Positions 2,291-41,014 of a stretch of 45,899 nt of DNA are shown here, piece after piece. The DNA lies in assembly GCA_902796795.1 (NCBI GenBank), contig CADBQM010000304.1:1-45899 (forward strand). The letters are read 5' to 3'. Every line of letters begins with the position of its first letter. The first letter of the stretch is position 1. The position numbers were made by a program, and so were the translations under genes. The DNA is from an uncultured Eubacteriales bacterium. GTDB taxonomy: Bacteria > Bacillota > Clostridia > Lachnospirales > Lachnospiraceae. The notes beneath the pieces are model-generated. The model was given only the letters and a program-made list of their open reading frames with translations. It did not search any database and was not told the origin of the DNA.

Positions 2291-3385
2291 TCAGGAAAAG
2301 ACGACCTCGCGCCCGGTGCGCGCACTTTCGTAGATCGCTTCGAGGATCTGCGTCACGACGAAGGCCTGCTCGGGCTTCACGCAGGGCTCGGTATCGTTCA
2401 GGATCGCGTCGATCCACTGGCGCGACTCGATCTCCTCCGGCTTCCCGGAAACACCGTCATAAAATGCCACGGAACCGGAAGTACTGACCTTCTCTTCCAT
2501 CAGCTGCCCGTATTTGCCGCGGTTGTAGACGACCTGGCCCGGATAGATATCGGCGCCGGCCTTCGTGCCGCAGAGCGTCGTGGAAGCCTCACGGTTCACG
2601 ATCGTGTTCAGGGCCCAGGAGGCGATCAGCTGGATCGTGGTCCCGTCCTTCATGACGATCTGGCCCATGGCGGAATCTTCGACCTCGTAGGTCTCCGGAT
2701 CCCAGGGCCCCCAGAGATTGCCGTCCACCGCTTCCGGAAGATTGCCGAGCTTGTAAAAGACAGAGCCTGTGACGCGTGCCGGTTCATACTTGTCCATGCA
2801 CCAGAGCGTCATATCGAGCGCGTGCGTGCCGATATCGATCAGGGGTCCGCCGCCCTGCAAGGCTTTGTTCGGGAATACGCCCCAGGTCGGGACCGCACGC
2901 CGGCGGATCGCATGTGCCTGCGCAAAATAGATATCGCCGAGTTCGCCGGCCTCTACCGCATGCTTCAGGTTCTGAAGCTCCGGACGGAAGCGGCTCTGAT
3001 AACCGATGGTAAACTTCTTTCCGCTCTCCTTCCAGGCTTCCATCATGCGCTGCGCGTCCGCGACTGTCGCGGCCATGGGCTTTTCGCACATGACGTGCTT
3101 GCCTGCCTTGAACGCGTCGATCGAGATCTGCGCGTGCGCCACGTTCGGCGTCAGCACGTGCACGACGTCGATCTCCGGCAGCGCCAGGAGTTCGTGATAA
3201 TCTTCAAAGACCGGGGCATCCTCCGTCCCGTATTCCTTCTTTGCCTTTTCCGCCCGTTCGACGATAATATCGCAGAATGCCGCGATGTCCAGGCGGTCCG
3301 CCTGCTTTTTCAGCGAGGGCAGATGTTTCTCGTTCGCAATGCCGCCGCAGCCGATGATGCCGACCTGTAATTTCCCGTTTTTCAT
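2291..3385 (-). CDS. Gfo/Idh/MocA oxidoreductase, DgpA-like (candidate glycoside 3-oxidising enzyme), 364 aa
   Basis: Trimmed to the ATG at 3385 (RBS AGGAGAGG). Rossmann motif VGIIGCGGIANEKH, EKP motif (VMCEKPMA), and GVFPNKALQGGGPLIDIGTHALD. It is a close paralog of 38804-39907 and lies adjacent to a DgpB/DgpC-like pair. Confidence 0.8.
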   Translation of the reverse strand: MKNGKLQVGIIGCGGIANEKHLPSLKKQADRLDIAAFCDIIVERAEKAKKEYGTEDAPVFEDYHELLALPEIDVVHVLTPNVAHAQISIDAFKAGKHVMCEKPMAATVADAQRMMEAWKESGKKFTIGYQSRFRPELQNLKHAVEAGELGDIYFAQAHAIRRRAVPTWGVFPNKALQGGGPLIDIGTHALDMTLWCMDKYEPARVTGSVFYKLGNLPEAVDGNLWGPWDPETYEVEDSAMGQIVMKDGTTIQLIASWALNTIVNREASTTLCGTKAGADIYPGQVVYNRGKYGQLMEEKVSTSGSVAFYDGVSGKPEEIESRQWIDAILNDTEPCVKPEQAFVVTQILEAIYESARTGREVVFS

Positions 3386-3472
3386 AGGACCTCTCCTGTA
3401 ATAATAGTTATACACAGCGTAGCATGCCGGCCCTGTTTTGTAAACGAGAAAAGGTGTTTCAGGGGGTGTTTC

Positions 3473-3913
3473 TCAGACGATCAGCAGCCTTCTTTCGTTC
3501 ACATGCTTCCCGAATTCCGGCATAAAGACGAAGCTCTCCTGATCGGGATCCAGTTTGTCCTGCATGATCGGCGGCATGTAGCTTGAGGTAAAGCAGAAAC
3601 CGTACTTCAGATCGTGGTAGCCCTGTTGAAGTCCGCCGGGCTTTTTCACCTTCAGCACCGCGCATTCGGTGGGATTCCAATGGGTCTTCCAGTCAGTCCG
3701 CATCTCTTCGAGCGTGTAGTCCTGCCCCTTGAAATACCAGACGATGTCTTCCTTCTCTATGCGTTCGCCGTCCACATAGAGCGTGCCCGGCATCAGCTGG
3801 GAAAGATAAACGCCGCGGTAGTAAGGCAGGCGGATCTTGAACTGGAAGCCGATGACCGCACCGTTCTCCACAGTATTCCGGAAACCGACGGATTGAATGA
3901 CCTGTTTTTCCAT
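3473..3913 (-). CDS. C-glycoside deglycosidase beta-subunit-like small protein (DgpB/CarC-like, DUF6379-type), 146 aa
   Basis: RBS AAGGAG. Motifs GFQFKIRLPYYRGVYLS...YVDGERI...VKKPGGLQQGYHDLKY are shared with the second copy at 33255-33650. It sits immediately upstream of a TIM-barrel partner and a Gfo/Idh/MocA gene. Confidence 0.7.
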   Translation of the reverse strand: MEKQVIQSVGFRNTVENGAVIGFQFKIRLPYYRGVYLSQLMPGTLYVDGERIEKEDIVWYFKGQDYTLEEMRTDWKTHWNPTECAVLKVKKPGGLQQGYHDLKYGFCFTSSYMPPIMQDKLDPDQESFVFMPEFGKHVNERRLLIV

Positions 3914-3930
3914 TTTTCGCTCCTTTCCGT

Positions 3931-4803
3931 TCAGTCTCCGAGTAGACGCTTCAGCATGATGTGCTGCTTGCGGAGCGTCTGCCCCACTTCGTAGCCGTCG
4001 TCATACTTGTCCGCCCCTTCGTATTCGCTTAAGAGATAGCCGTCCCAGCCATAGTCCTGCATGACCTTGACGATCGCCGGATAGGGGATCGTGGTCTCTT
4101 CGAAATCATCGCTCATGTGGATGAATTTCGCGTGGCAGCAGTAAACGTACGGGAGCAGCGGGATCAGGTCCTCGGGGGTATTGGCCTGGTAATCCGGACT
4201 GCGGTACTGCCCTTCCTCAAAACCGGTCCGGAAGACGGAAAAGTCGATGTTCAGGCCGAAATTCTTCGTTCCGGTCTCTTTAATAAAGTCGACGTAGTCC
4301 CGCACCATCTCGCCGTTCAGGTTTGACGGCGTATGGATCTCCGGACACATGCGGACGTTCATCCGCTCCGCGAGCGGCAGCGCGCCCTTGATGATCTCCC
4401 GCCAGTTTTTGACCGGTTCCAGTTTTCCGTTGATGACCGGCATCTTGGTCCGCATCACGGTAAAGCCCAGACGGTTCGCCAGACGGATGTCCCGCTCCAG
4501 CATCTCGATGCTCTCTTCCGTCGTGAGCTCCCGGCCGCGGATCACATGGCTGTCGATCCAGTGGCCGTATTCCACCGGGACGACTTCGTATTTGTCACAG
4601 AGGTGGAACCAGTTCTCCACCCAGGCATCCGAGGGATAGGGATAATTCTCGATATGGGTGTTTGCGAGGATCTCGATCCCGTGCGCGCCCATGTCATACG
4701 TATCCTCGAAGCAGTCTTCCAGGGTCTTCGTCAGGCCGAATTCCGCGGAGTAGCTGTAGAACGCGACACCGCGCTTCGGGCCTTTTCTGTCGTAGTGGTA
4801 CAT
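3931..4803 (-). CDS. C-glycoside deglycosidase alpha-subunit-like xylose-isomerase-fold TIM barrel (DgpC/CarB-like), 290 aa
   Basis: RBS AAAGGAAAG. Homologous by eye to 32186-33241 ([14 protein letters not shown] vs GTKFFGFIPDMGIF; HAKF...[10 protein letters not shown] vs HAKF...DFKETAVALP; GYLLSEYEG vs GFLSSEYEG). Paired with the small beta-like ORF. Confidence 0.7.
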
Positions 4804-25943: not shown

Positions 25944-28757
25944 TTACAGCTGTTTGTTCAGCCGCAGCATGACTTTCAGGATATTCACCGCGCATCGTTC
26001 AACGTCGCCTTTTGCGATCGTCTGCCGGTAATGATCCTTCACACGGTAGACGATGGTCTTTCCTTCATCCGCGATATAAGCGACCTTCGTATCCACCGGG
26101 GACTTCATCGGCTCGTACTGATCACGCAGCCGGAACGCGTCGAAGATCGGGCTGGCTTCGTAATAGATCTTTTCGCCGTTCACCAGGATCAGGCCGTCCT
26201 TTTCTTCCGCCGCATAGGCTTCCCCGAGCGCCACGCGAAGCTCCAGGTCCCCATCAGCACAGGGTTCATAATCATGCCACAGCATCTGATAGACTTCCGC
26301 GAAGGGAATACCGATCCGGAAACGTTTCACCTGGCCGTTCGCATCAAACTCAGGTTCGACCTTCTTCATGTGTGTGAGGATCTCGATACTCTTTTCGAAA
26401 CCGCCGGGGGTGATCAGGTCGTTGCCCGCATGCATGGATTTGGAAGGTGTACTGCTGCCGCCGTTCCAGTCGGTCATGATCAGGCCGTCGAAGCCCCACT
26501 CGCCGCGTGCCAGATTGGTACAGAGGTCATAATCATCCGCCGTCGGGACGCCGTTGACCAGGTTGTAGGAGGTCATGAAGGACATCGTCCTCCCTTTGAC
26601 CACGGAAAGACGGAACGGCTCGAGGTAGATCTCGCGGATCGCCCGCTCGCCGGCGACCGAGTTATTGGCGTGGCGGTTGGTCTCCTGGTTGTTCAGCGCG
26701 TAGTGCTTCACACAGGCTGCCGCCGTATCGTCTTTCTGGATCCCGAGGGTGACCGCGGCCGCCATTTCGCCGGCCAGCAGCGGATCTTCGGAAAAATACT
26801 CAAAATTTCTTCCGCAGAGCGGGTTACGGTGGATGTTCACGCCGGGCCCTAAAAGAATGTCGATGTTCATCGCCCGAAGGTCCGCGTTCATGCCCTCGCC
26901 GACTTCCCGGAGGAGCACACGGTCAAAGCTCTGCGCCAGGTGCGTCCCGATCGGCCATGCAATGCAGTAGTGGTAGACCGTCTGCTTTTCGCCGGTATCA
27001 ACATTCGTTGCTTCAAAGTGCTGGGAAATGCGGACACCGCCGGGACCGTCCGCCAGGACCAGCGACGGAACGCCGAACTTCTCCGCCAGCGTGTGCGTGG
27101 TCTCGCCCGCCGCGCCGGGCACCGATTCGGAATTCGCGCCGATGATCGGATTTGCATCGTCTTCAACGCCCCAGCCGGTGCCGCAGACAAAGGTGGAAAG
27201 CTCCTCTTCCGTCAGCTGGGAAACAAATTCCTCTGCCGTGACCCTGCCGGCCAGCAGGTCCTCATAGCGGCTTTCCTTCGCTTCCACCAGCTGTACGTTT
27301 TCGTAAGGCAGCGCTGCTTCATACGCGGGATCCGTGGTATAGGTCGTCACCTGCTGGTCCGCAAATGCGGATCTTCTGTCTTCCGTGACGAAGGGCAGGT
27401 CCGGTTTCAGGATCGAAAGCGACGCTGCTTCTCCCCGGTTGTCCCTCCCACGGAGTCCGGTCAGCTCCTGAAGCTCCTGCTTCAGCGGCAGGACCGGAAG
27501 GACCAGGACGGTCTCCACGAGTTCCGGAATGTGGACCGCGGCGACAGCCTTTGTCTGATCCGATGCACTGCCGATGCGGACGATGTAAAAGCCGCGGGAA
27601 AGGATGTAGGCGGAGCCCCGCTTGCTGAACGAATGCAGGTCCTTCAGTGGGACTGCGATCTCAACAAGTTCCTTTTCGCCAGGTGCCAGCAGTTTCGTCT
27701 TTTCAAAGCCCTTCAGCTCCTGATACGGCATGTCAAGTTCGGTGGAGGGGGCGGAAACATAGAGCTGCACCACTTCCCTGCCCGCGAAGCAGCCGGTATT
27801 CACGACCTCGGTCACCGTCTTCAGGATATTGTTCTCTACGACGGCGGAAACGGTCTTCAGCTCAAACGTCGTATAGGACAGGCCGTAGCCGAAAGCGTAG
27901 CCAGGCGTCCTGCCGAACGTATCGAAAAACCGGTAGCCGACGTAGATGCCCTCGGTATACAGGGAGGTGTCCCGGTCGCTTAAGTAGGTGCCTGCGCTTG
28001 GATAATCCGCATAGTCTGCCGCCCAGGTCGTCGTGAGCTTGCCAGAGGGGTTCGTCTCGCCGGTCAGCACCGCTGCCGCCGCCGCGCCGCATTCCTGGCC
28101 GCCCTGCCCGATCAGCAGGATCGCATCCGCATCCGCGGCCTGAAGATCCGAAACGTTCACCGGCCCCCCGACGTTTAACAGCAGGATCAGGCGTTTGAAA
28201 TACCGGCGCAGCAGGGCCAGATCTTCTTTCTCGACCGCGGAGAGATCGAAGTCGTCTTCAACCTTGCGGTCGTTGCCTTCGCCGGAGTTGCGGGAAAGCA
28301 CGAAGATCGCGGTCTTCGCAGCAGCCGCCAGCTCCCTGGCATCCTCTTCTCTGATCTCCTCTTCCGGGAGCTTCAGCGTTGCCATGACCCGGTCCGGGAG
28401 CTCCCGGAGCGCCGTATCATAGCGTTCGCCGTTCTTCTCGATCTGTACTTCATTCAGCACCGTGAACCCGGCTTCCTTCATCGCCGGCAGCAGCTGGATG
28501 TGATATCTGGGGGAAAGGTCCACGTTGGCGTCGCCGCCGCCGGTAAGCCCGCCGTTGAACGGATCTCCGGAGCCGGTACCGCCGCGGATGGTCCGGGCTG
28601 CGCCGTTGCCGAACATGGCGACGGTACAGGGAGAAAGCGGCAGCGTCTGATCCCGGTTATACAACAGGACCATACCTTCCTTCGCTGCTTTCAACGATAT
28701 CGCAGCGCCTTCGATCTCACGCTGTGATAAAGGCGGAAATACAGTCATATTACTCAT
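25944..28757 (-). CDS. Glycoside hydrolase family 3 beta-glucosidase-type enzyme with permuted domain order, 937 aa, cytoplasmic
   Basis: RBS AAGGAG. The alpha/beta-sandwich (GGTGSGDP, NPSGKLTTTW, FGYGLSYTTF) and FnIII-like domains come first. The TIM barrel (KHYALNNQETNR, GFDGLIMTDW nucleophile context) is C-terminal. Confidence 0.9.
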   Translation of the reverse strand: MSNMTVFPPLSQREIEGAAISLKAAKEGMVLLYNRDQTLPLSPCTVAMFGNGAARTIRGGTGSGDPFNGGLTGGGDANVDLSPRYHIQLLPAMKEAGFTVLNEVQIEKNGERYDTALRELPDRVMATLKLPEEEIREEDARELAAAAKTAIFVLSRNSGEGNDRKVEDDFDLSAVEKEDLALLRRYFKRLILLLNVGGPVNVSDLQAADADAILLIGQGGQECGAAAAAVLTGETNPSGKLTTTWAADYADYPSAGTYLSDRDTSLYTEGIYVGYRFFDTFGRTPGYAFGYGLSYTTFELKTVSAVVENNILKTVTEVVNTGCFAGREVVQLYVSAPSTELDMPYQELKGFEKTKLLAPGEKELVEIAVPLKDLHSFSKRGSAYILSRGFYIVRIGSASDQTKAVAAVHIPELVETVLVLPVLPLKQELQELTGLRGRDNRGEAASLSILKPDLPFVTEDRRSAFADQQVTTYTTDPAYEAALPYENVQLVEAKESRYEDLLAGRVTAEEFVSQLTEEELSTFVCGTGWGVEDDANPIIGANSESVPGAAGETTHTLAEKFGVPSLVLADGPGGVRISQHFEATNVDTGEKQTVYHYCIAWPIGTHLAQSFDRVLLREVGEGMNADLRAMNIDILLGPGVNIHRNPLCGRNFEYFSEDPLLAGEMAAAVTLGIQKDDTAAACVKHYALNNQETNRHANNSVAGERAIREIYLEPFRLSVVKGRTMSFMTSYNLVNGVPTADDYDLCTNLARGEWGFDGLIMTDWNGGSSTPSKSMHAGNDLITPGGFEKSIEILTHMKKVEPEFDANGQVKRFRIGIPFAEVYQMLWHDYEPCADGDLELRVALGEAYAAEEKDGLILVNGEKIYYEASPIFDAFRLRDQYEPMKSPVDTKVAYIADEGKTIVYRVKDHYRQTIAKGDVERCAVNILKVMLRLNKQL

Positions 28758-28783: not shown

Positions 28784-31159
28784 TTACATCCGCTGCAGCA
28801 CGATCATCCTGAGCTCGTTCATCTCCATACGGAAAGTCAGGAAAAGCGAGCCCTCCGCCGGGGTGCGGACTTCCGAAAGCACCTCCGGCACCGCCGTCTG
28901 GGAAAGATATTCCAGATCGTCCCTGGAAAGATTCTCGATGCTGCCGAGTTCGGTCCACTTTTTGATAATACTGCCGCGGTCCATGTTCATCACACGCTGC
29001 CGGATCCGGTAAGGACTGTTCTCTAAGCCGGTGATATCCAGCTGCATCGCCGCCGGATCGATCGCCTCGAAAATGTCCGGGATCTCCTCTACGCCGAAGG
29101 AGTCCTCCTCCACCATGTAGTAGCGCGGGCCGAGGTGCTTCCGGTTCCAGCAGAGGATACGGATATCGCCGTTGTGATAAGCAGAGGCAAAACAACGGTC
29201 CGTCTGTGCCAGGCGGATGTTCCCCAGTTGTCCGATAAAACGGAAGGCATAATAGGCCGGTTTCCGTACACCGTTTTTCGTCAGCAGGCCGCCGCCGCCG
29301 GAAAGCTCCGCCATGGTATCCGAAAAGGCGGAAAGCAGGTCGGAAGCATAAAAGACACCGACCGTATCCGCGATTCCAAGGATCGGCAGTACTTCACTTA
29401 CCGTCTCGGCCGCCCGGTAACAGCTGTCCTGCAGATAGTTCCGGTTGGAGGTACTGATCCCGTATTCCGTGATCCAGTACTCTCCCTGGAAGCCGGCCTT
29501 ATTCAGCGTCTTCCGGATGGTGCCGGTCTCATTCAGCAGATATTCCCTCTCCGGATTTTTCTCGAAGGTACCGTGTGAATCGACGATCCCGGTCTTTTTG
29601 TAAGGGAAATGTGCGCTCGTGAAAATGTCCGGGACCCGGCTGCTGTTTACCATCCGGGTGACCGCTTCCATCTGCCCGCGCATATCCACGTCCGGCAGCA
29701 GCCCGGGGCCGGCGATCCTGGCCGCCGGAATGATCCTTCGGATCATCTCGTAACTCTTTTCCCAGACCTCACGGAAGGAATGATTTTTCCCCTGATGATA
29801 CTGCGCATCGCTCAGGGAATCCGTCAGCTCAAAGACCCAGTTACGGACCGTTTCTTCGTGATAACGGTTCCTGAGATGCTGCAGCAGTGTCTGAAGCGCG
29901 TCCAGCCATTCGGAAATATCCTTGAAATGTTCCCTGAGCGGCGTAACGTAGATCTCTTTTTTCTCACTTGCCATCTGACGGTCCTTGCGTACCGTCAGAT
30001 CTAGCATGATATTCAGGTGGTGGTCGACGCAGAAGTCCATGATCTCGTCCATCAGAGTGAAGTTATAAACACCGCCCTGTTCGTCAAAGAGCATCAGGCT
30101 GTCCGAGAACGGGCTCCAGAGCCGGATATAATTCACATTCAGCCGTTCCGCAAGAAAAAGCACCTGTTTCTGCATGCTGGCGGAACGCAGTGAGATGATC
30201 GGTCCCACATTCAGGATGCGGTTCTTCCAGCCTGCCCAGGCACTGCCCCGGTCCGCCGGGATCTGGATCCGGTTCACGAATTCGTCCGGCAGGCTCCGGA
30301 GTTCTTCTTCCGACTGCAGGATCTCCAGCACTTTGTCCTTGTCCGGATCATTGGTGACCGGCGGTTCTTCCTGTGCCATGGACTCCCGGTATTTCCCCGG
30401 CGCCATGCCGTAGGTCTCACGGAAGACACGATTCAAGACGGCCGGCGATGAGAAGCCGGCATTCAGCGCGATATCCGTAATGCTGTGGTCGGTATGCAGA
30501 AGCTCGCTCATCACGGCTTTCAGCCGCAGGTTTTTCAGGTACTCCGGGAAATCCTCCCCGGTATAGTATTTGAACAGACGGGAAGCCGTGGACCTGGAAA
30601 GATAGAGCTTTTCCGCGATCTCTGTCAGGCTGATCTCGCTGCGATAATTCATCCATACGTACCGCAGAATCTCCCGGGCTTTGTCGTCCCGGTCGTTTCC
30701 GCTGCTTTCCTGTTTTTCCGAGACCGAAAAATCATCGAGCAGTTTTTGAAGCAGCAGGTAGGACAGGCCTTTGGCCTTATAATGACTGTTTTCCTGATTT
30801 TCGAGGCAGCACATCAGAAGGCCGCGGAGGATGAACTGCAGTTCCGAAGTTTTGGACGTGGCCTCCTTGGTACTGTTCAGATAGAATGTCAGCGAACTGC
30901 GCCCCAGTTCCTTCAAAAGGCTGAAATAAGGAATCTCAAAGACGACTGCCAGCAGTCCATCGCCGGCTTCGACCCGTCCCTCTTCCATCGGATTCAGCAG
31001 CAGCATGTCGGATTTCCGCATCTGCACCGTTTCCTGGGGCAGGATCACATTGCAGCTGCCTTCAACGATAAAAATGATCCGAAGCTTATCAAACGAAGCC
31101 AGAAGGTCCCGGCTGTCATGAAAGATCATATTCAAAAACTGAGTATTCTGTTCTGCCAT
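28784..31159 (-). CDS. AraC-family transcriptional regulator fused to a GH39-like (apparently non-catalytic) sensor domain, 791 aa
   Basis: Trimmed to the ATG at 31159 (GGAGATCATTATG). It has an N-terminal cupin-like part, a central AraC HTH pair (SLTEIAEKLYLSRSTASRLFK...ITDIALNAGFSSPAVLNRVFRETYG), and a C-terminal GH39-like TIM barrel (RYHEETVRNWVFELTDS, YWITEYG). Confidence 0.85.
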   Translation of the reverse strand: MAEQNTQFLNMIFHDSRDLLASFDKLRIIFIVEGSCNVILPQETVQMRKSDMLLLNPMEEGRVEAGDGLLAVVFEIPYFSLLKELGRSSLTFYLNSTKEATSKTSELQFILRGLLMCCLENQENSHYKAKGLSYLLLQKLLDDFSVSEKQESSGNDRDDKAREILRYVWMNYRSEISLTEIAEKLYLSRSTASRLFKYYTGEDFPEYLKNLRLKAVMSELLHTDHSITDIALNAGFSSPAVLNRVFRETYGMAPGKYRESMAQEEPPVTNDPDKDKVLEILQSEEELRSLPDEFVNRIQIPADRGSAWAGWKNRILNVGPIISLRSASMQKQVLFLAERLNVNYIRLWSPFSDSLMLFDEQGGVYNFTLMDEIMDFCVDHHLNIMLDLTVRKDRQMASEKKEIYVTPLREHFKDISEWLDALQTLLQHLRNRYHEETVRNWVFELTDSLSDAQYHQGKNHSFREVWEKSYEMIRRIIPAARIAGPGLLPDVDMRGQMEAVTRMVNSSRVPDIFTSAHFPYKKTGIVDSHGTFEKNPEREYLLNETGTIRKTLNKAGFQGEYWITEYGISTSNRNYLQDSCYRAAETVSEVLPILGIADTVGVFYASDLLSAFSDTMAELSGGGGLLTKNGVRKPAYYAFRFIGQLGNIRLAQTDRCFASAYHNGDIRILCWNRKHLGPRYYMVEEDSFGVEEIPDIFEAIDPAAMQLDITGLENSPYRIRQRVMNMDRGSIIKKWTELGSIENLSRDDLEYLSQTAVPEVLSEVRTPAEGSLFLTFRMEMNELRMIVLQRM

Positions 31160-31175
31160 AATGATCTCCGAATAG

Positions 31176-31216
31176 AAAAAACTTCTGTTCCGGCCAGCGA
31201 CAGCCGGCCGGAACAG
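31176..31216 (-). terminator. Intrinsic terminator/attenuator between the flavoprotein gene and the regulator gene
   Basis: Perfect 11-bp GC-rich stem CUGUUCCGGCC/GGCCGGAACAG (31185-31195 and 31206-31216) with a 10-nt loop. On the minus strand it is followed by AAGUUUUUUCUAUU, which runs straight into the regulator RBS. Confidence 0.75.
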
Positions 31217-31225
31217 GTTCAAGGA

Positions 31226-32173
31226 TCACTCTCCGACGTGAAGATATTTCTCCTTCAGTTCTCTCAGGTTCTCTACCTTCTTCTGGGTCATCGCACCATT
31301 CGCGATCTCGTTCCGGTGCTCCAGCTTGCCGCCCCAGCGCATACGGGAACGGTCCTGCTCCGCCTGCGAGAATTCGTAGGTCGCGGAACCGGCCTGCATC
31401 TTTACGACGCCGTGGATGCCGCAGATCGCGCATTCTACATGATCGGTGCCGGGATATACCCGGAACATGCTCTGGTGGCAGACCGGGCAGGCGCCGGGCT
31501 CCTCGCCGCGCCATTTCGTGCGTTCTTCGTCGGTCTCCGCCGCCAGCGCTGCGATGACGTTCTCCGCCATCTTGTCCGCACGCGCCATCTGCTCCGGCAC
31601 GCCGAGGATGTGCGATACGTTCATCGCGCCGTAATAGACGTGGGTGTCGATGACGTCGACGCCCGCCGACATCATGCCTTCGTACATGATCGGGATGGTC
31701 ATGATCGTCCAGTTCTCGGTCCTTGCGCCGCCGACGCCGACCAGGCAGCCGATCCTCGGCTTGAACGCGCGCTCATCCGGCATCAGCGGATTGCCGTTTG
31801 CCAGCCGTTCCTTCTTTGCTTCCGCAAGGAAGGTGATATCATGCGACGGGCCGAAACGGTCGCAGAAGGTCTTGAAGGTGCCGGAGGGCGAGGTCTCGTA
31901 GACCGGGGAACCGATCAGCACGCAGTCTGCGTCGTAGTAGGCATCCTCGAGGATGTGGAAATCGTCCTTGTGGATGCAGGTCCCGTTGGTCCTGCCGGAC
32001 ATGATGCCGACCACGCAGGCACAGCAGCCGGTACAGGGCTTGATGTCAAGATCATCCGGACGGATGAATCTGATCTCATGGCCGGCTTCCTGACATTTCA
32101 GCAGCACCTCTTTTAGGAACACGTCCGTATTGGACATCTTTCTGCCGAAAGAAAACGCTGTAACTTTGCTCAT
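31226..32173 (-). CDS. Flavodoxin-fold NAD(P)H-dependent FMN reductase-like protein with an N-terminal Cys cluster and C-terminal Zn ribbon, 315 aa (candidate ene-reductase)
   Basis: RBS AAGGAGG. Cys-rich motif KPCTGCCACV...GTCIHKDD as in iron-sulfur flavoprotein-type reductases, a GSPVYE FMN-site-like motif, and two CxxC pairs (CPVCHQ...ECAICG). Confidence 0.7.
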   Translation of the reverse strand: MSKVTAFSFGRKMSNTDVFLKEVLLKCQEAGHEIRFIRPDDLDIKPCTGCCACVVGIMSGRTNGTCIHKDDFHILEDAYYDADCVLIGSPVYETSPSGTFKTFCDRFGPSHDITFLAEAKKERLANGNPLMPDERAFKPRIGCLVGVGGARTENWTIMTIPIMYEGMMSAGVDVIDTHVYYGAMNVSHILGVPEQMARADKMAENVIAALAAETDEERTKWRGEEPGACPVCHQSMFRVYPGTDHVECAICGIHGVVKMQAGSATYEFSQAEQDRSRMRWGGKLEHRNEIANGAMTQKKVENLRELKEKYLHVGE

Positions 32174-32185
32174 TCTTCTGCCTCC

Positions 32186-33241
32186 TTATGCCTCGATCAG
32201 CCGGCGCATCGCTTCCTGGTGCCGGGCAACCTGGGTAATGGAATCCACGCCCACGTCGCGGAGATGCTCGCCGCCTTCGTATTCGGAACTTAAGAAGCCG
32301 TGATAGCCGGCCTTCTTGAAGGCTTCGATGACCTCCGGGAGCGCGACTGCGGTCTCCTTGAAGTCTTCATGCACGTTGTAGAATTTCGCGTGCGTATGGA
32401 AGATGTATTCGATGTTGTCGATGAGGTCCTGCGGCTCCGACCAGGAATAGGTGAAGGAGTTGTTGGCATACCACAGGTTGCCGGGGTTCTCGCCAAGGGC
32501 GTTTACGGCCTCCATCATCTCGGCCATGCCGTTCGCCATGCGGTATTCAAAATTAGCCTTTCCGAGGTCAAGATCGTATTTGATCTTCACAAAGCCGTTG
32601 TTCACACGTTTCGCGAATGCGTCGTCAACGATCTTCAGGCCTTCTTCGGTCGCGCCCAGACGGCGGGCCTTGTCACGGACGACGTCCGGCAGGTTCCGGC
32701 AGAAGATGCCCATATCCGGAATAAAGCCGAAGAACTTCGTCCCGGTCTTGCGGATCATCGAAAGATAGCCTTCCGCCCAGCCGGAGTTCAGGGAGAACGG
32801 CGCATGGACTTCCAGGCCGATCTTCACGCCGACCTTTTCCGCATACTCCAGCGACCCTTCGATGACGGGCATCGGGGTGGAAACAAGGGTGCGGATGACC
32901 GGAAAACCAAGCAGCGACGCAAGATAAAGGTCGCGCTTCATCATGTTGACCTGCTCGCCTAAGCAGAGCATCCGGTTCCGGTAGATCCGGTTTTCCAGGA
33001 AAGCGTCGTAGCAGGAAGGCTCAAGGCCATACTTCTTCAGCATGGCAAACCAGTCCTCACGGAACTGCTCGTCCTCGATCGGCTTCGGGAACTTTTTGAT
33101 CATCTGCTCCGCCAGGAGCTCCACACCGGTCGCGCCGGCTTTGGCGGTCTCCCGGAGGCAGCCTTCCAAATCCAGCTTGCCTTCATAGTATTCGTCCTGA
33201 TAGCTGTAAAGAGATACGCTTCTCTTGATATCGTAATTCAT
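32186..33241 (-). CDS. C-glycoside deglycosidase alpha-subunit-like xylose-isomerase-fold TIM barrel (second copy), 351 aa
   Basis: RBS AAGGAGG. Homologous to 3931-4803 (see that entry). It lies directly downstream of the second small beta-like ORF. Confidence 0.7.
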   Translation of the reverse strand: MNYDIKRSVSLYSYQDEYYEGKLDLEGCLRETAKAGATGVELLAEQMIKKFPKPIEDEQFREDWFAMLKKYGLEPSCYDAFLENRIYRNRMLCLGEQVNMMKRDLYLASLLGFPVIRTLVSTPMPVIEGSLEYAEKVGVKIGLEVHAPFSLNSGWAEGYLSMIRKTGTKFFGFIPDMGIFCRNLPDVVRDKARRLGATEEGLKIVDDAFAKRVNNGFVKIKYDLDLGKANFEYRMANGMAEMMEAVNALGENPGNLWYANNSFTYSWSEPQDLIDNIEYIFHTHAKFYNVHEDFKETAVALPEVIEAFKKAGYHGFLSSEYEGGEHLRDVGVDSITQVARHQEAMRRLIEA

Positions 33242-33254
33242 CCTGACACCTCCT

Positions 33255-33650
33255 TTACTCGATCACAAAGTCTGCGACGCATTCCGTGATCCAGGGGAAA
33301 GGCATGTAGGAAGGCGCAATGTGCTGGATCGCTTTGAGATGATGCGGGCCCTTTGCGAGGCCGCCCGGCTTCTTTACGTTCACCGTGGCATATTCGCCGA
33401 ATTCCCAGCGGTAATCCGGATCCACGACCGTGCTCATCTCGTCCAGGGTGAAGGTCTCGCCGTTCACCGTCATGCTGATGGCTTCTGCGGGAATATCCTC
33501 TCCGTCGATGTTCACCTTGATGTCGTGGACGATCGAGAGGGTGATCCCTCTGTAGTACTGTGATTTCCAGCGGAAGCGGAAGCCTGTCGCTTCGCCGTTT
33601 TCTTCGATGTTCTGGAACCCCTGCGGGTCAAACATCACACGTGCTGCCAT
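33255..33650 (-). CDS. C-glycoside deglycosidase beta-subunit-like small protein (second copy), 131 aa
   Basis: Trimmed to the ATG at 33650, preceded by CAAGGAGGAACC. Motifs GFRFRWKSQYYRGITLS...NIDGEDI...VKKPGGLAKGPHHLK parallel those of 3473-3913. Confidence 0.7.
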   Translation of the reverse strand: MAARVMFDPQGFQNIEENGEATGFRFRWKSQYYRGITLSIVHDIKVNIDGEDIPAEAISMTVNGETFTLDEMSTVVDPDYRWEFGEYATVNVKKPGGLAKGPHHLKAIQHIAPSYMPFPWITECVADFVIE

Positions 33651-33681
33651 ATGGTTCCTCCTTGTGTATTGATTGCCTTGC

Positions 33682-33799
33682 GGCGCGAGAGTCTTACGCT
33701 CTTGCAGGTCGCTCGGAAATATGGTCCTCTTCGGAGGCGGCATAGCCTCCTCAGAGGAGGCATATTCTCCTTGCTCCGCAAGAAGACTCTCCTCGCGCC
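33682..33799 (-). promoter_or_regulatory. Structured intergenic RNA element (multi-stem) between the reductase gene and the beta-subunit gene
   Basis: Outer arms GGCGCGAGAGTCTT (33682-33695) and AAGACTCTCCTCGCGCC (33783-33799). Inner hairpins CCTC-TTCG-GAGG (33726-33737) and GCCTCCT-CAG-AGGAGGC (33745-33761). There is a competing pair CTTGCGG (33677-33683) / CCGCAAG (33776-33782). Confidence 0.35.
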
Positions 33800-33806
33800 T
33801 GATTCC

Positions 33807-36590
33807 TTAATCAAGTTCTGAGATATATCTTGCTGCTTCCATGCCTGCGATGCGCCCCGTGTTCACTGCGAAGCCCATGGAGTTGCCGGGCAGCAGGAAC
33901 ATGTAGCTGTCGTTGTAGAGGTTGCAGGCGTCCGCGCCGGCTGCGTAGAGGCCAGGGATCGGATAGAAATCCTTGTCACAGGCTTCGCAGTTATCGTTGA
34001 TGCGGATGCCGCCGACGGTACCGTAGGCGCCGGGGCCGATCTTGCAGGCGTAGAACGGTGCCTTGTAGATCGGACGAAGATACCGGCCGGGCTTGTAGAA
34101 CTGCGTGTCGGTCGTATCGCAGAAGCCGTTGTACTCGTCGACGGTCTCCCGAAGGATCTCTGGGTCCGCGCCGAGCTTTTCGGCCAGTTCTTCGATCGTA
34201 TTTGCCACGATCGGATATTCGTTCTTGTTCTCCTCCGCCATTTTGATGCCGTCATAGAAATCAGAGACGTCCGTATTCGAACGTACCATGCTGACGACGT
34301 CAACGCCGTTCCGGATGTATTCACGGACGATCGAATCGTCGACGATCGAATACGAGGAGCGGTCCTTCTGATAGCTGATCGCATTGGAGAGGAAGGTCGT
34401 GTTCTGCATGTATTCCTCGTTCATGAAGCGCCGGCCGAAGGCGTTGACCAGGAGGTTCGGCTGGAAGAAGATACTGGAAACGCTGTCCGGCAGCCCTTCG
34501 ACGCCGACCATCATCGCCGCCTGCTCCATCCGGACCTGTACGTGGTCCACGCCGGCTTCCCAGGCCATCCTGAGACCGTCGCCGGTAATGCCCGGGATCG
34601 CGAAGTTGAACATGTCCTTATTGAAGGTATAGCCGGTCTCCTGATAGATCATTTCCGGATTCGCGCCGGCACCGCCGGTGCAGATGATCGCCGCCTTGCA
34701 GTTCACCCGGACCTTTTCGCCGGACGAGGTCTCCGCCAGGACGCCGGTCACACGCTCGTCTTCCTTGACGATGTGCAGCGCGCGGGTCTCCAGCAGGAAT
34801 TCGACGCCGAGCTCCAGCGCCTTGTTGTAGAGAGCCTTGTTCATGAAGGAAGCTGCACGCGGTCCGATCCGCTGGCCGCTCTTCACGATATGCCAGGTGC
34901 ACTCGGACTGCGGGAAGTAACGAAAAGCGCCTTCAAATTCCACGCCCATGCCTTCCAGCCATTCGATGGTCTCCGCGGACTGCGTGAAGTAGCGCTTGAC
35001 GAGCCGTGCGTCCACCTGGTAGTGCGTGTATTCCATGAACATGTTGAAGGCCTTTTCGACCGTGATGTCTTCCATCTGCTGCTTCTGGTACTTCGTCCCG
35101 ATGCCCAGGGGGCCCATGCCCATGTTTGCCGCGCCGCCGACCGCTGCAGCCTTCTCAAGCACGATGACCTTCGCGCCCTTCTCCGCTGCCTGGACCGCCG
35201 CCGAAAGGCCGGACGGGCCGCCGGCGATCACGCAGATCTCTGTATCGTAAGTCTTCATCTGATCTCCTTCCTGAAGGAACTTGGTGATGTCAAAAGCTTC
35301 ATAAGCCACCGTCTTCGGACCCGAAGCCGGGGCCTCAGCCGTGCTCTTATGCCCTGCGGGCCGTGTGATCCGTTTCGATGCCTTCTTCGTTTCCGCCGCG
35401 CCGCCTGCCGCAGTGCCTCTGCCGACCTTCATCGGACGGTCGGGGAGTTTCGGGAGCGCGCCTTCGGTAACGACGATGGCCTGTTCCGGGCAGACTTCCA
35501 TGCACTTTCCGCAGAAGGTGCAGCGTCCGTTGTCGATCAGGTGGACATAGCCCGGACGGCCTTCGACCGCGTCCGCTTCGCAGACCGCTGCACATTTGCC
35601 GCAGCCGGTGCACTTCGCGGGATCGATGTAGATCTTCTCTTTCCGGAAGCAGACGCCCGCCGGGCACTGCTTCTTCTGATGTGCTTCGAATTCCGCGCGG
35701 TATTTCGCGAGTGCTGTGAGGAGGAAGTCCGCGCCGCGCTGGCCGATACTGCAGAGGGAGGAGAAGTCCATCGCTTCGCCGATCTCTTCGATGATGTCGA
35801 AGTGGCCGGCGTCGCCCTTCCCTGCCTTCACTTCTGCCAAGAAGGCCTGGATCTGCAGGAGCCCCTCCCGGCAGAACGTACACTTGCCGCAGCTTTCCTG
35901 TCTGGACCGGAGCAGTCCGTCGAGCGCGTCCGCGACCAGGCAGTCCTTTTCCGTCACGAAACGAACGACGCCGCTGCCGAGTACGGTCTCCGGCAGGATC
36001 TCGAGCGCTTCCGCCTCTTCCTTCGTCAGCACACGACTGCCGAGCTGAACGGCCTTGAGGCCGGCCGGCAGCGGGAAGATCTCCTGAAGCTTCGTGCCGA
36101 ACGGGGCGGTCTTCACGAGGAAGCCTTCTGCTTCACGGCAGTACAGCCGGATCTCCGGCAGAACGCCTTCCATGAGCTTTGCCAGGGCAAAGGCGGTCTC
36201 GATATGGAAGCGCGCATGCTCCGCGAATTCGCGTGCCGGGACGATCCCGCAGCGGATCTCGTCCGGGAAGCCGGCCGCTTCTTTCTGTGTTTTAAGTGTC
36301 TCCGCAAGCGCTGTTTCTTCTTCCGGCAGATACAGGACGGCTTTTTCCGCGTCCGTCAGCTCCTTCAGAAGCACGATGCCGCGGAACACCGCCTCCGCTT
36401 CTTCCCGAAGCAGTACGAGCAGCGCACGGTCAAAATCATTATTGTTCAGGGCGACGGCGATGTCTGCCGCCCCGCCGGTCTCTTTCAGGCGGCTGAGTTC
36501 CGCAGCGGCTTCTTCTATCCGCGCTGCGAGCGGCTCGTTGTAGACGCCGTATTCGCGGAGTCCGGCCGCACGTACGTCTTCGATCCTCAT
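33807..36590 (-). CDS. Multidomain Fe-S flavoprotein: degenerate NuoF-like module (SLBB plus 4Fe-4S), 2x[4Fe-4S] ferredoxin, then a fumarate-reductase/KstD-family FAD domain, 927 aa
   Basis: The ATG at 36590 overlaps the upstream stop (ATGA). NuoF-type cluster motif ESCGKCTFCREG...LCSIGQ, with no FMN/NADH glycine-rich motif. Ferredoxin motifs CTGCGKCAAVCE and CTFCGKCMEVCP. A low-complexity linker is followed by the FAD dinucleotide motif ICVIAGGPSGLSAAVQAAEKGAKVIVLEK, and GLYAAGAD near the C-terminus. Confidence 0.8.
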   Translation of the reverse strand: MRIEDVRAAGLREYGVYNEPLAARIEEAAAELSRLKETGGAADIAVALNNNDFDRALLVLLREEAEAVFRGIVLLKELTDAEKAVLYLPEEETALAETLKTQKEAAGFPDEIRCGIVPAREFAEHARFHIETAFALAKLMEGVLPEIRLYCREAEGFLVKTAPFGTKLQEIFPLPAGLKAVQLGSRVLTKEEAEALEILPETVLGSGVVRFVTEKDCLVADALDGLLRSRQESCGKCTFCREGLLQIQAFLAEVKAGKGDAGHFDIIEEIGEAMDFSSLCSIGQRGADFLLTALAKYRAEFEAHQKKQCPAGVCFRKEKIYIDPAKCTGCGKCAAVCEADAVEGRPGYVHLIDNGRCTFCGKCMEVCPEQAIVVTEGALPKLPDRPMKVGRGTAAGGAAETKKASKRITRPAGHKSTAEAPASGPKTVAYEAFDITKFLQEGDQMKTYDTEICVIAGGPSGLSAAVQAAEKGAKVIVLEKAAAVGGAANMGMGPLGIGTKYQKQQMEDITVEKAFNMFMEYTHYQVDARLVKRYFTQSAETIEWLEGMGVEFEGAFRYFPQSECTWHIVKSGQRIGPRAASFMNKALYNKALELGVEFLLETRALHIVKEDERVTGVLAETSSGEKVRVNCKAAIICTGGAGANPEMIYQETGYTFNKDMFNFAIPGITGDGLRMAWEAGVDHVQVRMEQAAMMVGVEGLPDSVSSIFFQPNLLVNAFGRRFMNEEYMQNTTFLSNAISYQKDRSSYSIVDDSIVREYIRNGVDVVSMVRSNTDVSDFYDGIKMAEENKNEYPIVANTIEELAEKLGADPEILRETVDEYNGFCDTTDTQFYKPGRYLRPIYKAPFYACKIGPGAYGTVGGIRINDNCEACDKDFYPIPGLYAAGADACNLYNDSYMFLLPGNSMGFAVNTGRIAGMEAARYISELD

Positions 36591-38803: not shown

Positions 38804-39907
38804 TCAGAAGCGGATCTCGTGACCGGTCTCCGCTGCCTTGTAGATCGCGTCAAGCACTTTGGTAACGACCAGCGCTTCTTCCGGCTTGACGAGCGGCTCT
38901 GTCCCGTTGATGATGGCGTTCAGCCACTGACGGTTGTCGATCACGCCGGGTTCCGCGGAACCGCCTTCAAAGTAAGCGACCGCGCCGCCGCCTGCGAGCA
39001 CTTCGTCCATCAGCTGGCCGTTCCGGCCGCGGTTGTAGACCACGGACTGGCTCGGATAGCTCATGCCGGAGATGATCTCCGCACCGGCCTTGGTGCCGCA
39101 GAGGGTCGTCGCCGCTTCCTTGGCATCCCTTAAGTTGATCGCCCATGCAGCTTCCAGGCTGATGGTCGCGCCGTTCTTCATCTTGATGAAGCCCATTGCG
39201 CTGTCTTCGACTTCATAGGTCTCCGGATCCCAGGGACCGAATACGTTGCCCTCGGTCGCCTGCTGCAGGTGGCCAAGTTTATAAAACACGCTGCCGCTGA
39301 CGGATTCCACGTCATAGTTGTTCATGCACCACAGGGTGATGTCCAGTGCGTGGGTGCCGATGTCGATCAGGGGACCGCCGCCCTGCAGGGCCTTGTTCGG
39401 GAATACGCCCCAGGTCGGTACGCCGCGGCGGCGGATCGCATGTGCCTTGCCGTAGTAGATCTCACCGAGATCGCCGGCTTCGCAGGCTGCCTTCAGGTTC
39501 TGGACTTCCGGACGGAAACGGTTCTGATAGCCGATCGTGAACTGCTTGCCGCTCTTCTTCCAGGCTTCGATCATCTTTTCCGCGTCTTCGGGGCTGTGGC
39601 TCATCGGCTTCTCGCAATATACATGCTTGCCCTGAGCAAATGCCTCGACCGTGATCTCGCAGTGGCTGACGTTGGGGGTGCAGACATGGACGACGTCCAC
39701 ATCCGGATTCGCGCAGAGCTCATGATAGTCTTCACAGACCTGCGCGCCGGGCACGCCGTACTCTTCGGCTGCCTTTTCCGCTCTCTCGAGGATGATGTCG
39801 CAGAATGCGACCACTTCGCAGAGGTCACTGTTCGCCTTCATTGCCGGAAGGTGCTTCTGGTTCGCGATACCGCCGCAGCCGATCACGCCGATTCTAAGTT
39901 TTGCCAT
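38804..39907 (-). CDS. Gfo/Idh/MocA oxidoreductase, DgpA-like (second copy), 367 aa
   Basis: RBS AAGGAGAAAC. Collinear with 2291-3385 over its full length (IGVIGCGGIANQKH, CEKPM, GVFPNKALQGGGPLIDIGTHALD, WDPETYEVEDSAMG). Confidence 0.8.
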   Translation of the reverse strand: MAKLRIGVIGCGGIANQKHLPAMKANSDLCEVVAFCDIILERAEKAAEEYGVPGAQVCEDYHELCANPDVDVVHVCTPNVSHCEITVEAFAQGKHVYCEKPMSHSPEDAEKMIEAWKKSGKQFTIGYQNRFRPEVQNLKAACEAGDLGEIYYGKAHAIRRRGVPTWGVFPNKALQGGGPLIDIGTHALDITLWCMNNYDVESVSGSVFYKLGHLQQATEGNVFGPWDPETYEVEDSAMGFIKMKNGATISLEAAWAINLRDAKEAATTLCGTKAGAEIISGMSYPSQSVVYNRGRNGQLMDEVLAGGGAVAYFEGGSAEPGVIDNRQWLNAIINGTEPLVKPEEALVVTKVLDAIYKAAETGHEIRF

Positions 39908-39949: not shown

Positions 39950-41014
39950 TCAGGCTTCAAAAGGCACTGCCTTTCCGGTCCTTGCGGATTCACGGAAAGC
40001 ATCCATGATGCAGAGGTCGCGGCGGACCTGGGGCAATGTCACCTCAAAGGGCGTCCCTTCCTCCATCGCACGGATGTAGCCCTTGAACCAGTCAAGGTCA
40101 TTTGTCGGCACGTCCGGCAGGGGCTCTTCATAGAGCAGGCCTTCTTCCGGCGGTCCGAAGGAACGGGTGGGTCCGGCGGAGGTCATCGTGATCTTGCCGG
40201 GAACGTTCTCCAGCAGATGCCGTGTACGAACGATCCGCCGGGTCTCCTTCATGCCATTCAGGAAGTCAATATCGAGCAGCGCCGTTCCCGTATCGCCGGC
40301 GACGATCCACGCACGCTTGGGCGTCAGGAAGTAGGTACCAAGCTCGATCTCGGCAGTAAGGCCGCTCTCAAAGCGGAAGACCAGGAGGAAGTAATCGTCG
40401 ACTTCCTTGTTGATCACGTTCTTGATGTCCGCATAGACGGACACGACCTTTTCGTCCACCATGTCCAGGATCTGGTCGATCAGATGGATGCCCCAGTCAT
40501 AGAGCATGCCGCCGCCCATTTCCGGATAGATGTGCCAGTCGTGCATGTTGCCGTTGACGCCGTACATCATGGAACGGACAAGATAAGGCTTTCCGACCAG
40601 GCCTTGTTTCAGCACGGCCTTCATCGGCACGAAATCCGGGTCGTGGCGGCGCTGCTGATGCACCGTCATGCGTACGCCGGCCTTTTCTGCCTCCGCGACC
40701 ATCTCGTCAAAGTCCGCGACCGTCAACGCCGCCGGCTTTTCACAGATGATGTGCTTGCCCGCGCGGGCCGCCTTCACAGCCGCTTCCTTGTGGAGCGGGT
40801 TCGGGATCACGATCAGTACGGTATTGACTTCCGGATCCGCGATCAGCTCGTCCATGTCGGTGTACTTCCGTACGCCTTCCGGCGCGTCATCCATCTGGGA
40901 AGGAACGATATCGCAGATCGCTTCGATCGAGATCTCCGGAATCCGCTTCAGCAGGTTCATATGCTCGTGGCCCATAAAACCGTAACCCAGGATGCCAAGT
41001 CTGATATCAGCCAT
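39950..41014 (-). CDS. Gfo/Idh/MocA oxidoreductase (distinct subfamily), 354 aa
   Basis: RBS GGAGG. Motifs LGILGYGFMGHEH and ICEKPAA. The C-terminal alpha/beta domain differs from that of the DgpA-like pair. Confidence 0.8.
   Translation of the reverse strand: MADIRLGILGYGFMGHEHMNLLKRIPEISIEAICDIVPSQMDDAPEGVRKYTDMDELIADPEVNTVLIVIPNPLHKEAAVKAARAGKHIICEKPAALTVADFDEMVAEAEKAGVRMTVHQQRRHDPDFVPMKAVLKQGLVGKPYLVRSMMYGVNGNMHDWHIYPEMGGGMLYDWGIHLIDQILDMVDEKVVSVYADIKNVINKEVDDYFLLVFRFESGLTAEIELGTYFLTPKRAWIVAGDTGTALLDIDFLNGMKETRRIVRTRHLLENVPGKITMTSAGPTRSFGPPEEGLLYEEPLPDVPTNDLDWFKGYIRAMEEGTPFEVTLPQVRRDLCIMDAFRESARTGKAVPFEA

Follow-up and report, generated by a model that had tools for sequence, protein, structure and literature searches.

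Here we describe two adjacent genes, alpha2 and beta2, whose products, judging from their sequences and a structure model, very probably form a heteromeric, Mn2+-type metal-dependent C-glycoside deglycosidase (CGD), that is, a 3-keto-C-glycoside lyase. The genes lie in a 45,899-nucleotide (nt) stretch of DNA from an uncultured, rumen-type Eubacteriales bacterium of the family Lachnospiraceae (contig CADBQM010000304.1, assembly GCA_902796795.1), the whole of which is called the window here, and in which all genes except the last are on the minus strand. We refer to them as pair 2, and to a related pair at 3473-4803 of the same window as pair 1. By its sequence, pair 2 is a new member of the known CGD family that is at most 40% identical to any CGD of solved structure. 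Grasses and cereals are rich in C-glycosyl flavones such as vitexin, orientin and their isomers, which resist ordinary glycosidases, and characterised CGDs number, to our knowledge, no more than a handful.

The alpha2 and beta2 subunits

An earlier note, written from the DNA letters alone, had claimed open reading frames of 131 and 351 amino acids (aa) for this pair, and both are present on the minus strand:

33255-33650, minus strand: CGD beta subunit (beta2), 131 aa, PF19906, with a ribosome-binding site and with Y32, Y33 and R34 invariant
32186-33241, minus strand: CGD alpha subunit (alpha2), 351 aa, a TIM barrel carrying a lid (about residues 183-262), PF01261, best match 8qvc_A

Translation of beta2 is placed at the ATG at 33650, which has an AAGGAGG ribosome-binding site 6 nt on its 5′ side and begins a protein whose N-terminus, MA(A/G)R, aligns in 11 orthologues. 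A 162-aa reading from 33743 was rejected, since it lacks a ribosome-binding site and the orthologues begin at the 131-aa position. Over its full length the small subunit matches the Pfam family CGDB (PF19906) at E=3.5e-38 and 130.3 bits, where the family cut-off is 27.6 bits, so that the membership in the CGD beta family proposed for it stands. Its matches among the sequences of the PDB are CGD beta chains only, led by DfgB (E=4.5e-19) and followed by P581a DgpB1 and then DgpB. NCBIfam had no model for either the beta or the alpha subunit.

The large subunit matches the xylose-isomerase-like TIM barrel family PF01261 (E=1.5e-12), and its search against the PDB sequences returned eight matches, every one of them a CGD alpha chain. 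The best is 8qvc_A (E=2.6e-70), followed by DfgA, MtCGD, DgpC, P581a DgpC1, W974-1 DgpC2 and AgCarB2, with E-values from 1e-41 to 1e-29 for DfgA, DgpC, MtCGD and CarB2. Similarity to characterised CGDs was judged throughout by HMMER scores and structural Z-scores, and the identities of PDB entries 8QVC, 8QRZ, 8UMC, 9M3A and 9M3B, and of the entries from strains W974-1 and P581a, are those given in the PDB titles. An AlphaFold2 model of alpha2, built from 19 sequences (predicted local distance difference test, pLDDT, 83; predicted template modelling score, pTM, 0.82), was aligned to the 1000 PDB chains that Foldseek ranked highest. Every one of the 13 top-scoring structural matches is a CGD alpha subunit (Z 31-36.5), and the first of them is the CGD of Deinococcus aerius TR0125 (8QVC; Z 36.5 over 323 residues, 40% identity). 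The next fold class, made up of generic xylose-isomerase-domain proteins and ketose epimerases, begins at Z 25; the ketose epimerases themselves reach only Z 21-22 at 13-17% identity, and none of them is among the PDB sequence matches of alpha2.

The motifs by which the earlier note had recognised the two pairs as related were all found, namely YYRG, DGEDI/DGERI and VKKPGGL in both small subunits and GTKFFG/GTKNFG, HAKF and SEYEG in the large ones. It had also called the alpha subunit of pair 2 about 60 aa longer than that of pair 1. The number is right (61 aa), while the implied direction is not: about 350 aa is the usual length, and it is the pair-1 alpha subunit that is short. The 61 extra residues are a single insertion, at approximately residues 183-262, which is missing from the DfgA-type alpha subunit and is predicted in the AlphaFold2 model to form a five-helix lid. 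Known CGD alpha subunits are 347 (8QVC), 337 (DgpC) and 354 (CarB2) aa long, and the Deinococcus aerius enzyme (DaCGD), DgpC and CarB2 align over nearly the whole of the alpha2 model, as against 262-272 residues only for DfgA. On these lengths and alignments, pair 2 has the canonical architecture and the canonical length of a CGD, and DfgA is the short, minimal form.

The Deinococcus aerius CGD (8QVC/8QVD/8UMC) is similar to alpha2 in length and shares with it the lid, the metal-binding and catalytic motifs and a separate DUF6379 beta subunit; it differs in that it is 40% identical, that residues 215-244 of the alpha2 lid are unaligned to it in sequence, and that its beta chain scores 52 bits against beta2, compared with 72 for DfgB. 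It also comes from an aerobe, and it works with a flavin adenine dinucleotide (FAD)-dependent glucose-methanol-choline oxidase and not with a DgpA-type NAD enzyme. DfgA/DfgB (EuCGD; 7BVS/7DRE/7EXB) belong to the same family, carry the same catalytic residues and include, in DfgB, the closest solved relative of beta2, whereas DfgA has 290 aa, lacks the lid of roughly 75 residues and, as represented by the DfgA-type alpha subunit of pair 1, is 28% identical to alpha2; EuCGD is published as acting on 6-C-glucosyl flavones. DgpB/DgpC of strain PUE (PuCGD/PuCGE; 7BVR/7EXZ/7XRF) form a heteromeric CGD of a gut Lachnospiraceae-type anaerobe and are encoded next to dgpA, but DgpC is about 30% identical to alpha2 and has a tyrosine, Tyr303, where alpha2 has Gly324; strain PUE is published as deglycosylating puerarin only. 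AgCGD2 (CarB2/CarC2) of Arthrobacter globiformis (7DNM) supplies the reference ligands and catalytic residues, all of them kept in alpha2, and the fused MtCGD of Microbacterium testaceum (8QRZ) has a beta-alpha layout that recurs in the alpha2 clade, in a protein, P0092, that is described below. These two soil actinobacterial enzymes are 27-34% identical to alpha2 and differ further in their FAD-dependent CarA-type oxidases.

Active site and proposed reaction

In the alpha subunit of AgCGD2 the Mn2+ ion is held by E147, D179, H269, K271 and E305, activity is abolished when the ligand positions are changed to alanine, and H149, networked to E307, is the likely base (Mori et al. 2021, PMC8563793). 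The counterparts in alpha2 were numbered from the pattern E-x-H, D, H-x-K, E-x-E and its spacing rather than from a residue-level alignment with 7DNM, and are as follows:

AgCGD2 E147, alpha2 E144: metal ligand
AgCGD2 H149, alpha2 H146: catalytic base
AgCGD2 D179, alpha2 D176: metal ligand
AgCGD2 H269, alpha2 H284: metal ligand
AgCGD2 K271, alpha2 K286: metal ligand
AgCGD2 E305, alpha2 E320: metal ligand
AgCGD2 E307, alpha2 E322: partner of the base

All five ligands are thus kept in the TIM barrel together with H146 and E322, the metal-binding and catalytic residues that the earlier note had expected of a CGD, and the seven are identical in 19 aligned sequences (18 orthologues and the DfgA-type paralogue). 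The alignment to known CGDs that the same note had proposed gave matches to DgpC, DfgA and CarB2, with the Deinococcus aerius enzyme best, and the catalytic motifs of alpha2 align with those of DaCGD, DfgA, MtCGD and DgpC.

The small subunit contributes a further residue. Tyr39 of DgpB is conserved in known CGDs, and its replacement by phenylalanine removes more than 99% of C-glycoside cleavage while most O-glycoside cleavage is kept (Bitter et al. 2023, PMC10628242). In a gap-free stretch of the alignment, this residue corresponds to Tyr33 of beta2, the second tyrosine of the YYRG motif, and Y32, Y33 and R34 do not vary across 13 beta sequences.

By homology, the following reaction can be proposed. 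A Gfo/Idh/MocA oxidase, for which the genes at 38804-39907 and 39950-41014 are candidates, would oxidise the 3''-hydroxyl of an imported aryl-C-glucoside. The product would then enter the alpha2/beta2 active site, where E144, D176, H284, K286 and E320 would hold the metal and H146, networked to E322, would abstract the C2'' proton, with Tyr33 of beta2 stabilising the ortho-phenolate of the aglycone. The C-C bond would be cut by beta-elimination, leaving the aglycone and 2-hydroxy-3-keto-glucal, and the genomic context suggests that the aglycone might then be reduced by a flavone reductase (FLR) homologue, by an Fe-S flavoenzyme, or by both. As to which C-glycosides would be accepted, Tyr303 of DgpC is part of the oxyanion pocket and clashes with 6-C-glycosides (Mori et al., PMC8563793); its equivalent is Gly324 in alpha2 and likewise glycine in the alpha subunit of pair 1, a weak hint that pair 2 may be free of the DgpBC-type restriction.

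Pair 1 and the spread of the clade

The other pair in the window, with its oxidase gene, comprises:

3473-3913, minus strand: DfgB orthologue
3931-4803, minus strand: DfgA orthologue
2291-3415, minus strand: pair-1 oxidase, DgpA family

Both subunits of pair 1 match DfgA/DfgB of Eubacterium cellulosolvens over their full length (7bvs_A, E=6e-168; 7bvs_B, E=7e-73), and by sequence pair 1 is a near-orthologue of these proteins. The claimed paralogy of the two pairs is far beyond chance: the alpha subunits are 28% identical (E=9e-37) and the beta subunits 43% (E=4e-25). Pair 2, which the earlier note had called diverged, is neither oddly long nor an odd copy, and belongs to a large, well-conserved clade. 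A recent duplication of pair 1 was considered and rejected, because the alpha subunits share only 28% identity and the two pairs have separate DgpA-family oxidases (2291-3415 and 38804-39907), which are 65% identical. In the assembly to which the window belongs, 2.08 Mb long and 81% complete, no CGDB genes were found besides those of the two pairs. That the pairs might differ in regiospecificity or substrate specificity, as the note had suggested, is a reasonable idea, for which genomic context and a single residue are the only pointers, and the DfgAB-type pair 1 probably covers a different subset of C-glycosides.

Adjoining pair 1 is a gene at 1187-2110 (minus strand) for a 307-aa protein of TIM-barrel/xylose-isomerase fold. 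It is weakly similar to the 2-hydroxy-3-keto-glucal hydratase of A. tumefaciens (8ro4_A, E=5.5e-8), and in many other species its homologues, at 63-83% identity, adjoin alpha2-type pairs.

When each species was represented by a single genome, a scan turned up 50 loci with relatives of alpha2 at 72-91% identity, a degree of conservation that points to purifying selection on alpha2. Nearly all the carriers are Lachnospiraceae, from rumen and from rabbit, mouse, chicken and human gut, and the cultured ones include Mediterraneibacter glycyrrhizinilyticus, Schaedlerella arabinosiphila, Faecalicatena faecalis, Agathobacter ruminis and Lachnospiraceae KH1T2. A protein collection contained 616 relatives at E<=1e-10, and all those in the 120 clusters listed are at least 77% identical; where the matches listed are named, they bear generic labels only, such as 'TIM barrel protein' or 'sugar phosphate isomerase/epimerase'. 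In a family sample of 301 genomes, which took one from each of 300 Lachnospiraceae genera and added that of the window, a CGD alpha gene was found in 16, and one of the alpha2 type (at least 64% identity) in 8. Some genomes have 4-8 CGDB genes, and four to six dgpBC clusters per genome have already been published for Catenibacillus, so that two pairs in one genome are not unusual. The clade also contains a natural fusion, P0092 (514 aa, on the contig of locus L017), in which a linker of 35 aa joins beta to alpha. At three other CGDB matches (G145:C69:15983-16318, G145:C69:34467-34799 and G653:C1:2515146-2515481) there are open frames of about 470-512 aa, whose length suggests further beta-alpha fusions. 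Such fusions are an indirect sign that the two subunits may form a physical complex.

The operon, its putative reductases and the likely substrates

Pair 2 belongs to a minus-strand transcription unit that runs from at least 41014 to a terminator at 31216-31185. In the order of transcription, and leaving aside alpha2 and beta2 themselves, its features are:

39950-41014, minus strand: DgpA2-like Gfo/Idh/MocA oxidoreductase, 354 aa, matching 9m37_A ('P581a DgpA2 and isoorientin complex') at E=1.3e-99
38804-39907, minus strand: DgpA orthologue, a Gfo/Idh/MocA glycoside 3-oxidase, 367 aa, matching 7xr9_A over residues 1-362 at E=2.5e-194 and 649 bits
36587-38704, minus strand: Fe-S flavoprotein partner, 705 aa, with 2Fe-2S, NuoG-like 4Fe-4S and a GltD-like NAD(P)H/FAD module
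33807-36590, minus strand: Fe-S/FAD fusion protein, 927 aa, from Pfam and NCBIfam matches, overlapping the 705-aa gene by 4 nt
33651-33806, minus strand: structured spacer between the reductase gene and beta2, 156 nt, minimum free energy -66 kcal/mol, z=-5.1
31226-32173, minus strand: FLR homologue, the final gene of the operon, 315 aa, matching 7d38_A and PF03358, 12 nt past alpha2
31185-31216, minus strand: intrinsic-terminator-like hairpin closing the operon, with a 14-bp stem of which 10 pairs are G-C, then a T-rich tail

The gap from beta2 to alpha2 is 13 nt and that from alpha2 to the FLR homologue 12 nt, and each gene has a ribosome-binding site of its own, that of alpha2 being of the AAGGAGG type. 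The 3-oxidase that a CGD would need is thus found in the same locus, as the DgpA orthologue. This protein is very close to the DgpA of strain PUE, yet alpha2 is only about 30% identical to DgpC, and oxidase and lyase clades have therefore been recombined between organisms.

Conservation of the neighbourhood was counted in 20 orthologous loci flanked on either side by 9 kb or more of sequence. The beta gene is directly upstream of alpha in all 20; a DgpA-type oxidase is adjacent in 14, a second, DgpA2-like oxidase is present in 12, the flavin domain of the reductase in 9, an FLR-like gene in 10 and an AraC/GH39-like regulator (GH, glycoside hydrolase family) in 12.

The 156-nt spacer folds into one long hairpin. 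It was tried as a known RNA element and rejected, since it matched no Rfam family and is not conserved in relatives: loci L003, L043 and L044 have short gaps at this junction, while L004 and L006 have unrelated, equally stable hairpins there. The two unrelated hairpins make it look like a variable palindromic insertion. A second structured spacer, at 2111-2290 (-76 kcal/mol), is unrelated to it in sequence. Nor does composition mark the region as a horizontally acquired island, an idea that was dropped, as the G+C fraction is flat, at 0.52-0.61 across the window. Beyond the operon, the TTG start of an AraC/GH39-like regulator frame (28784-31222, minus strand) falls inside the terminator hairpin, and the true start is probably further downstream. 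A 937-aa GH3 protein (25944-28757, minus strand) has a permuted order of Pfam domains: the GH3 C-terminal domain (residues 29-275) precedes an Fn3-like domain (328-399), and the GH3 N-terminal domain (586-765) comes last.

The reductase genes deserve closer description. The 315-aa FLR homologue has a single PDB match, 7d38_A (E=1.8e-38, residues 3-308), with both Cys motifs aligned. Entries 7D38-7D3B are the flavone reductase FLR of Flavonifractor plautii, an enzyme that, its discoverers state, cannot take electrons directly from NAD(P)H and whose electron chain in the cell they describe as unknown. In this enzyme the A and C rings stack on flavin mononucleotide (FMN). The 927-aa protein combines, at residues 3-389, a NuoF-C-like part with two [4Fe-4S] clusters and, at residues 445-927, a flavoprotein of fumarate-reductase fold. 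It is fused in the window and its nearest relatives; in most relatives it is two genes that flank the 705-aa homologue, one for a flavoprotein of about 483 aa that corresponds to residues 445-927 (61-72% identical) and one for an Fe-S protein of about 400 aa that corresponds to residues 3-389 (about 40% identical). Half-genes and fusions were compared at loci L022, L025, L021, L038, L047, L049, L052 and L030.

Orthologues of the flavin domain, at 58% identity or more, occur in 7 of the 301 genomes of the family sample, and all 7 are among its 16 CGD carriers. Sampling across the class, with 399 genomes scored and that of the window included, added two carriers, at 66% and 53% identity, whose CGDB genes are 2.2 kb and about 25 kb away. 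All nine carriers of the flavin domain therefore have CGD genes, eight on the same contig and seven within 5 kb; these are plain counts, over genomes that were taken one per genus or evenly drawn and are still related to one another. The coupling of the pair to an Fe-S reductase, which the earlier note had read from the one locus, is backed by conserved gene order and by this co-occurrence. In the alignment with Shewanella Fcc3, four positions that we take to be its fumarate-binding and catalytic sites are replaced in the flavin domain (H365 by Ala, R402 by Gln, H504 by Gly and R545 by Leu), so that its substrate is not fumarate and probably no carboxylate at all. Its best NCBIfam match, below the cut-off, is vinyl phenol reductase, and a flavone or flavanone aglycone, the C-glycoside itself and a sugar enone are the candidate substrates.

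Since the operon adds two oxidases, a two-subunit Fe-S flavoprotein and an FLR homologue to the pair, we consider the most likely physiological substrates to be flavone C-glucosides from forage plants, and suppose that the flavone would be reduced as soon as it is released. The FLR homologue, the DgpA and DgpA2-like oxidases and the glycine at the Tyr303 position are pointers that would favour flavone C-glucosides over xanthones or chromones. Several observations weigh against this reading of the pair and its substrates. The closest characterised enzyme is only 40% identical to alpha2, and FLR-like and reductase genes are near the pair in only about half of the 20 fully flanked loci. No characterised CGD shows conservation with pair 2 in the lid (183-262) or in the beta loops, which give the aglycone pocket its shape, and for this reason substrate and regiospecificity of pair 2 cannot be read from the sequence. 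Finally, C-glycosides need not be the only or even the main substrate, because known CGDs, such as PuCGE (DgpBC), cleave 3-keto-O-glucosides as well as 3-keto-C-glucosides.

A mixed O-/C-glycoside role is, by this analogy, possible for pair 2. The stronger proposal, that it works chiefly as a 3-keto-O-glycoside beta-eliminase, or acts broadly on O- and C-glycosides, and would serve in vivo to cleave flavonoid O-glucosides oxidatively, with C-glycoside cleavage as a side activity, seems to us improbable. It would suit a window rich in genes that process O-glycosides and esters (GH3, GH5 and many esterases) as well as the dual activity of PuCGE, and DgpA-type oxidases accept both O- and C-glycosides (PMC11239390). 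The beta subunit and the equivalent of Tyr39, however, are dispensable for O-cleavage and needed for C-cleavage, and here both are strictly conserved; for O-glycosides a single-subunit TIM-barrel enzyme suffices, and the window already contains a candidate in the protein at 1187-2110. Slightly less probable still is a role on reduced C-glycosides, in which the FLR homologue, the Fe-S flavoenzyme or both would act first and hand the pair a flavanone or dihydrochalcone C-glucoside. The reductase genes are indeed upstream of the CGD genes and in one operon with them, the confinement of the flavin domain to CGD-carrying genomes fits a pathway-specific substrate better than a generic flavone, and dihydrochalcone C-glucosides such as 3-keto-nothofagin are good CGD substrates. 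The order of the genes, though, does not tell that of the reactions, roughly half of the orthologous loci lack a nearby reductase, and in the characterised FLR it is the A and C rings that stack on the flavin.

We regard it as very improbable that pair 2 is an ordinary sugar isomerase or epimerase accompanied by an accessory subunit, or that it is a duplicate of DfgAB that has become inactive. The generic labels of alpha2 relatives in public records point that way, as does a fold held in common with the ketose 3-epimerases, but the CGD structures stand apart at Z 31-36.5 against 25 or less for all others, the CGDB partner is present and the catalytic residues are intact. An inactive duplicate, for its part, is hard to reconcile with 72-91% conservation in 50 species and with only 28% identity to pair 1.

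Whether the clade has a wider role is a more tentative matter. It is conceivable, if on present evidence the less favoured outcome, that herbivore-gut Lachnospiraceae have a self-contained, reductase-coupled route for flavone C-glucosides, whose entry step is the alpha2/beta2 clade. Because its sampled carriers always have CGD genes as well, the Fe-S flavoenzyme may act on an intermediate specific to the pathway. It may use the released 2-hydroxy-3-keto-glucal or the C-glycosyl flavone, or it may instead supply electrons to the FLR-type flavone reductase, as the physiological donor that is still missing for that enzyme. We found no description of a linkage between CGD, FLR and an Fe-S flavoenzyme in the literature that could be searched.

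Present in 50 species and at most 40% identical to solved CGDs, the alpha2/beta2 clade is a good target for widening the range of CGD specificities, and it could improve the prediction of C-glycoside conversion from metagenomes, in which its genes now appear just as 'TIM barrel protein'. Of more interest is how tightly the pair is linked in the genome with an FLR homologue and an Fe-S flavoenzyme that is restricted to CGD carriers, which is mostly a property of the neighbours and not of the pair itself; any of the roles suggested for the flavoenzyme would, if true, amount to a novel enzymatic function connected with the cleavage of C-glycosides.

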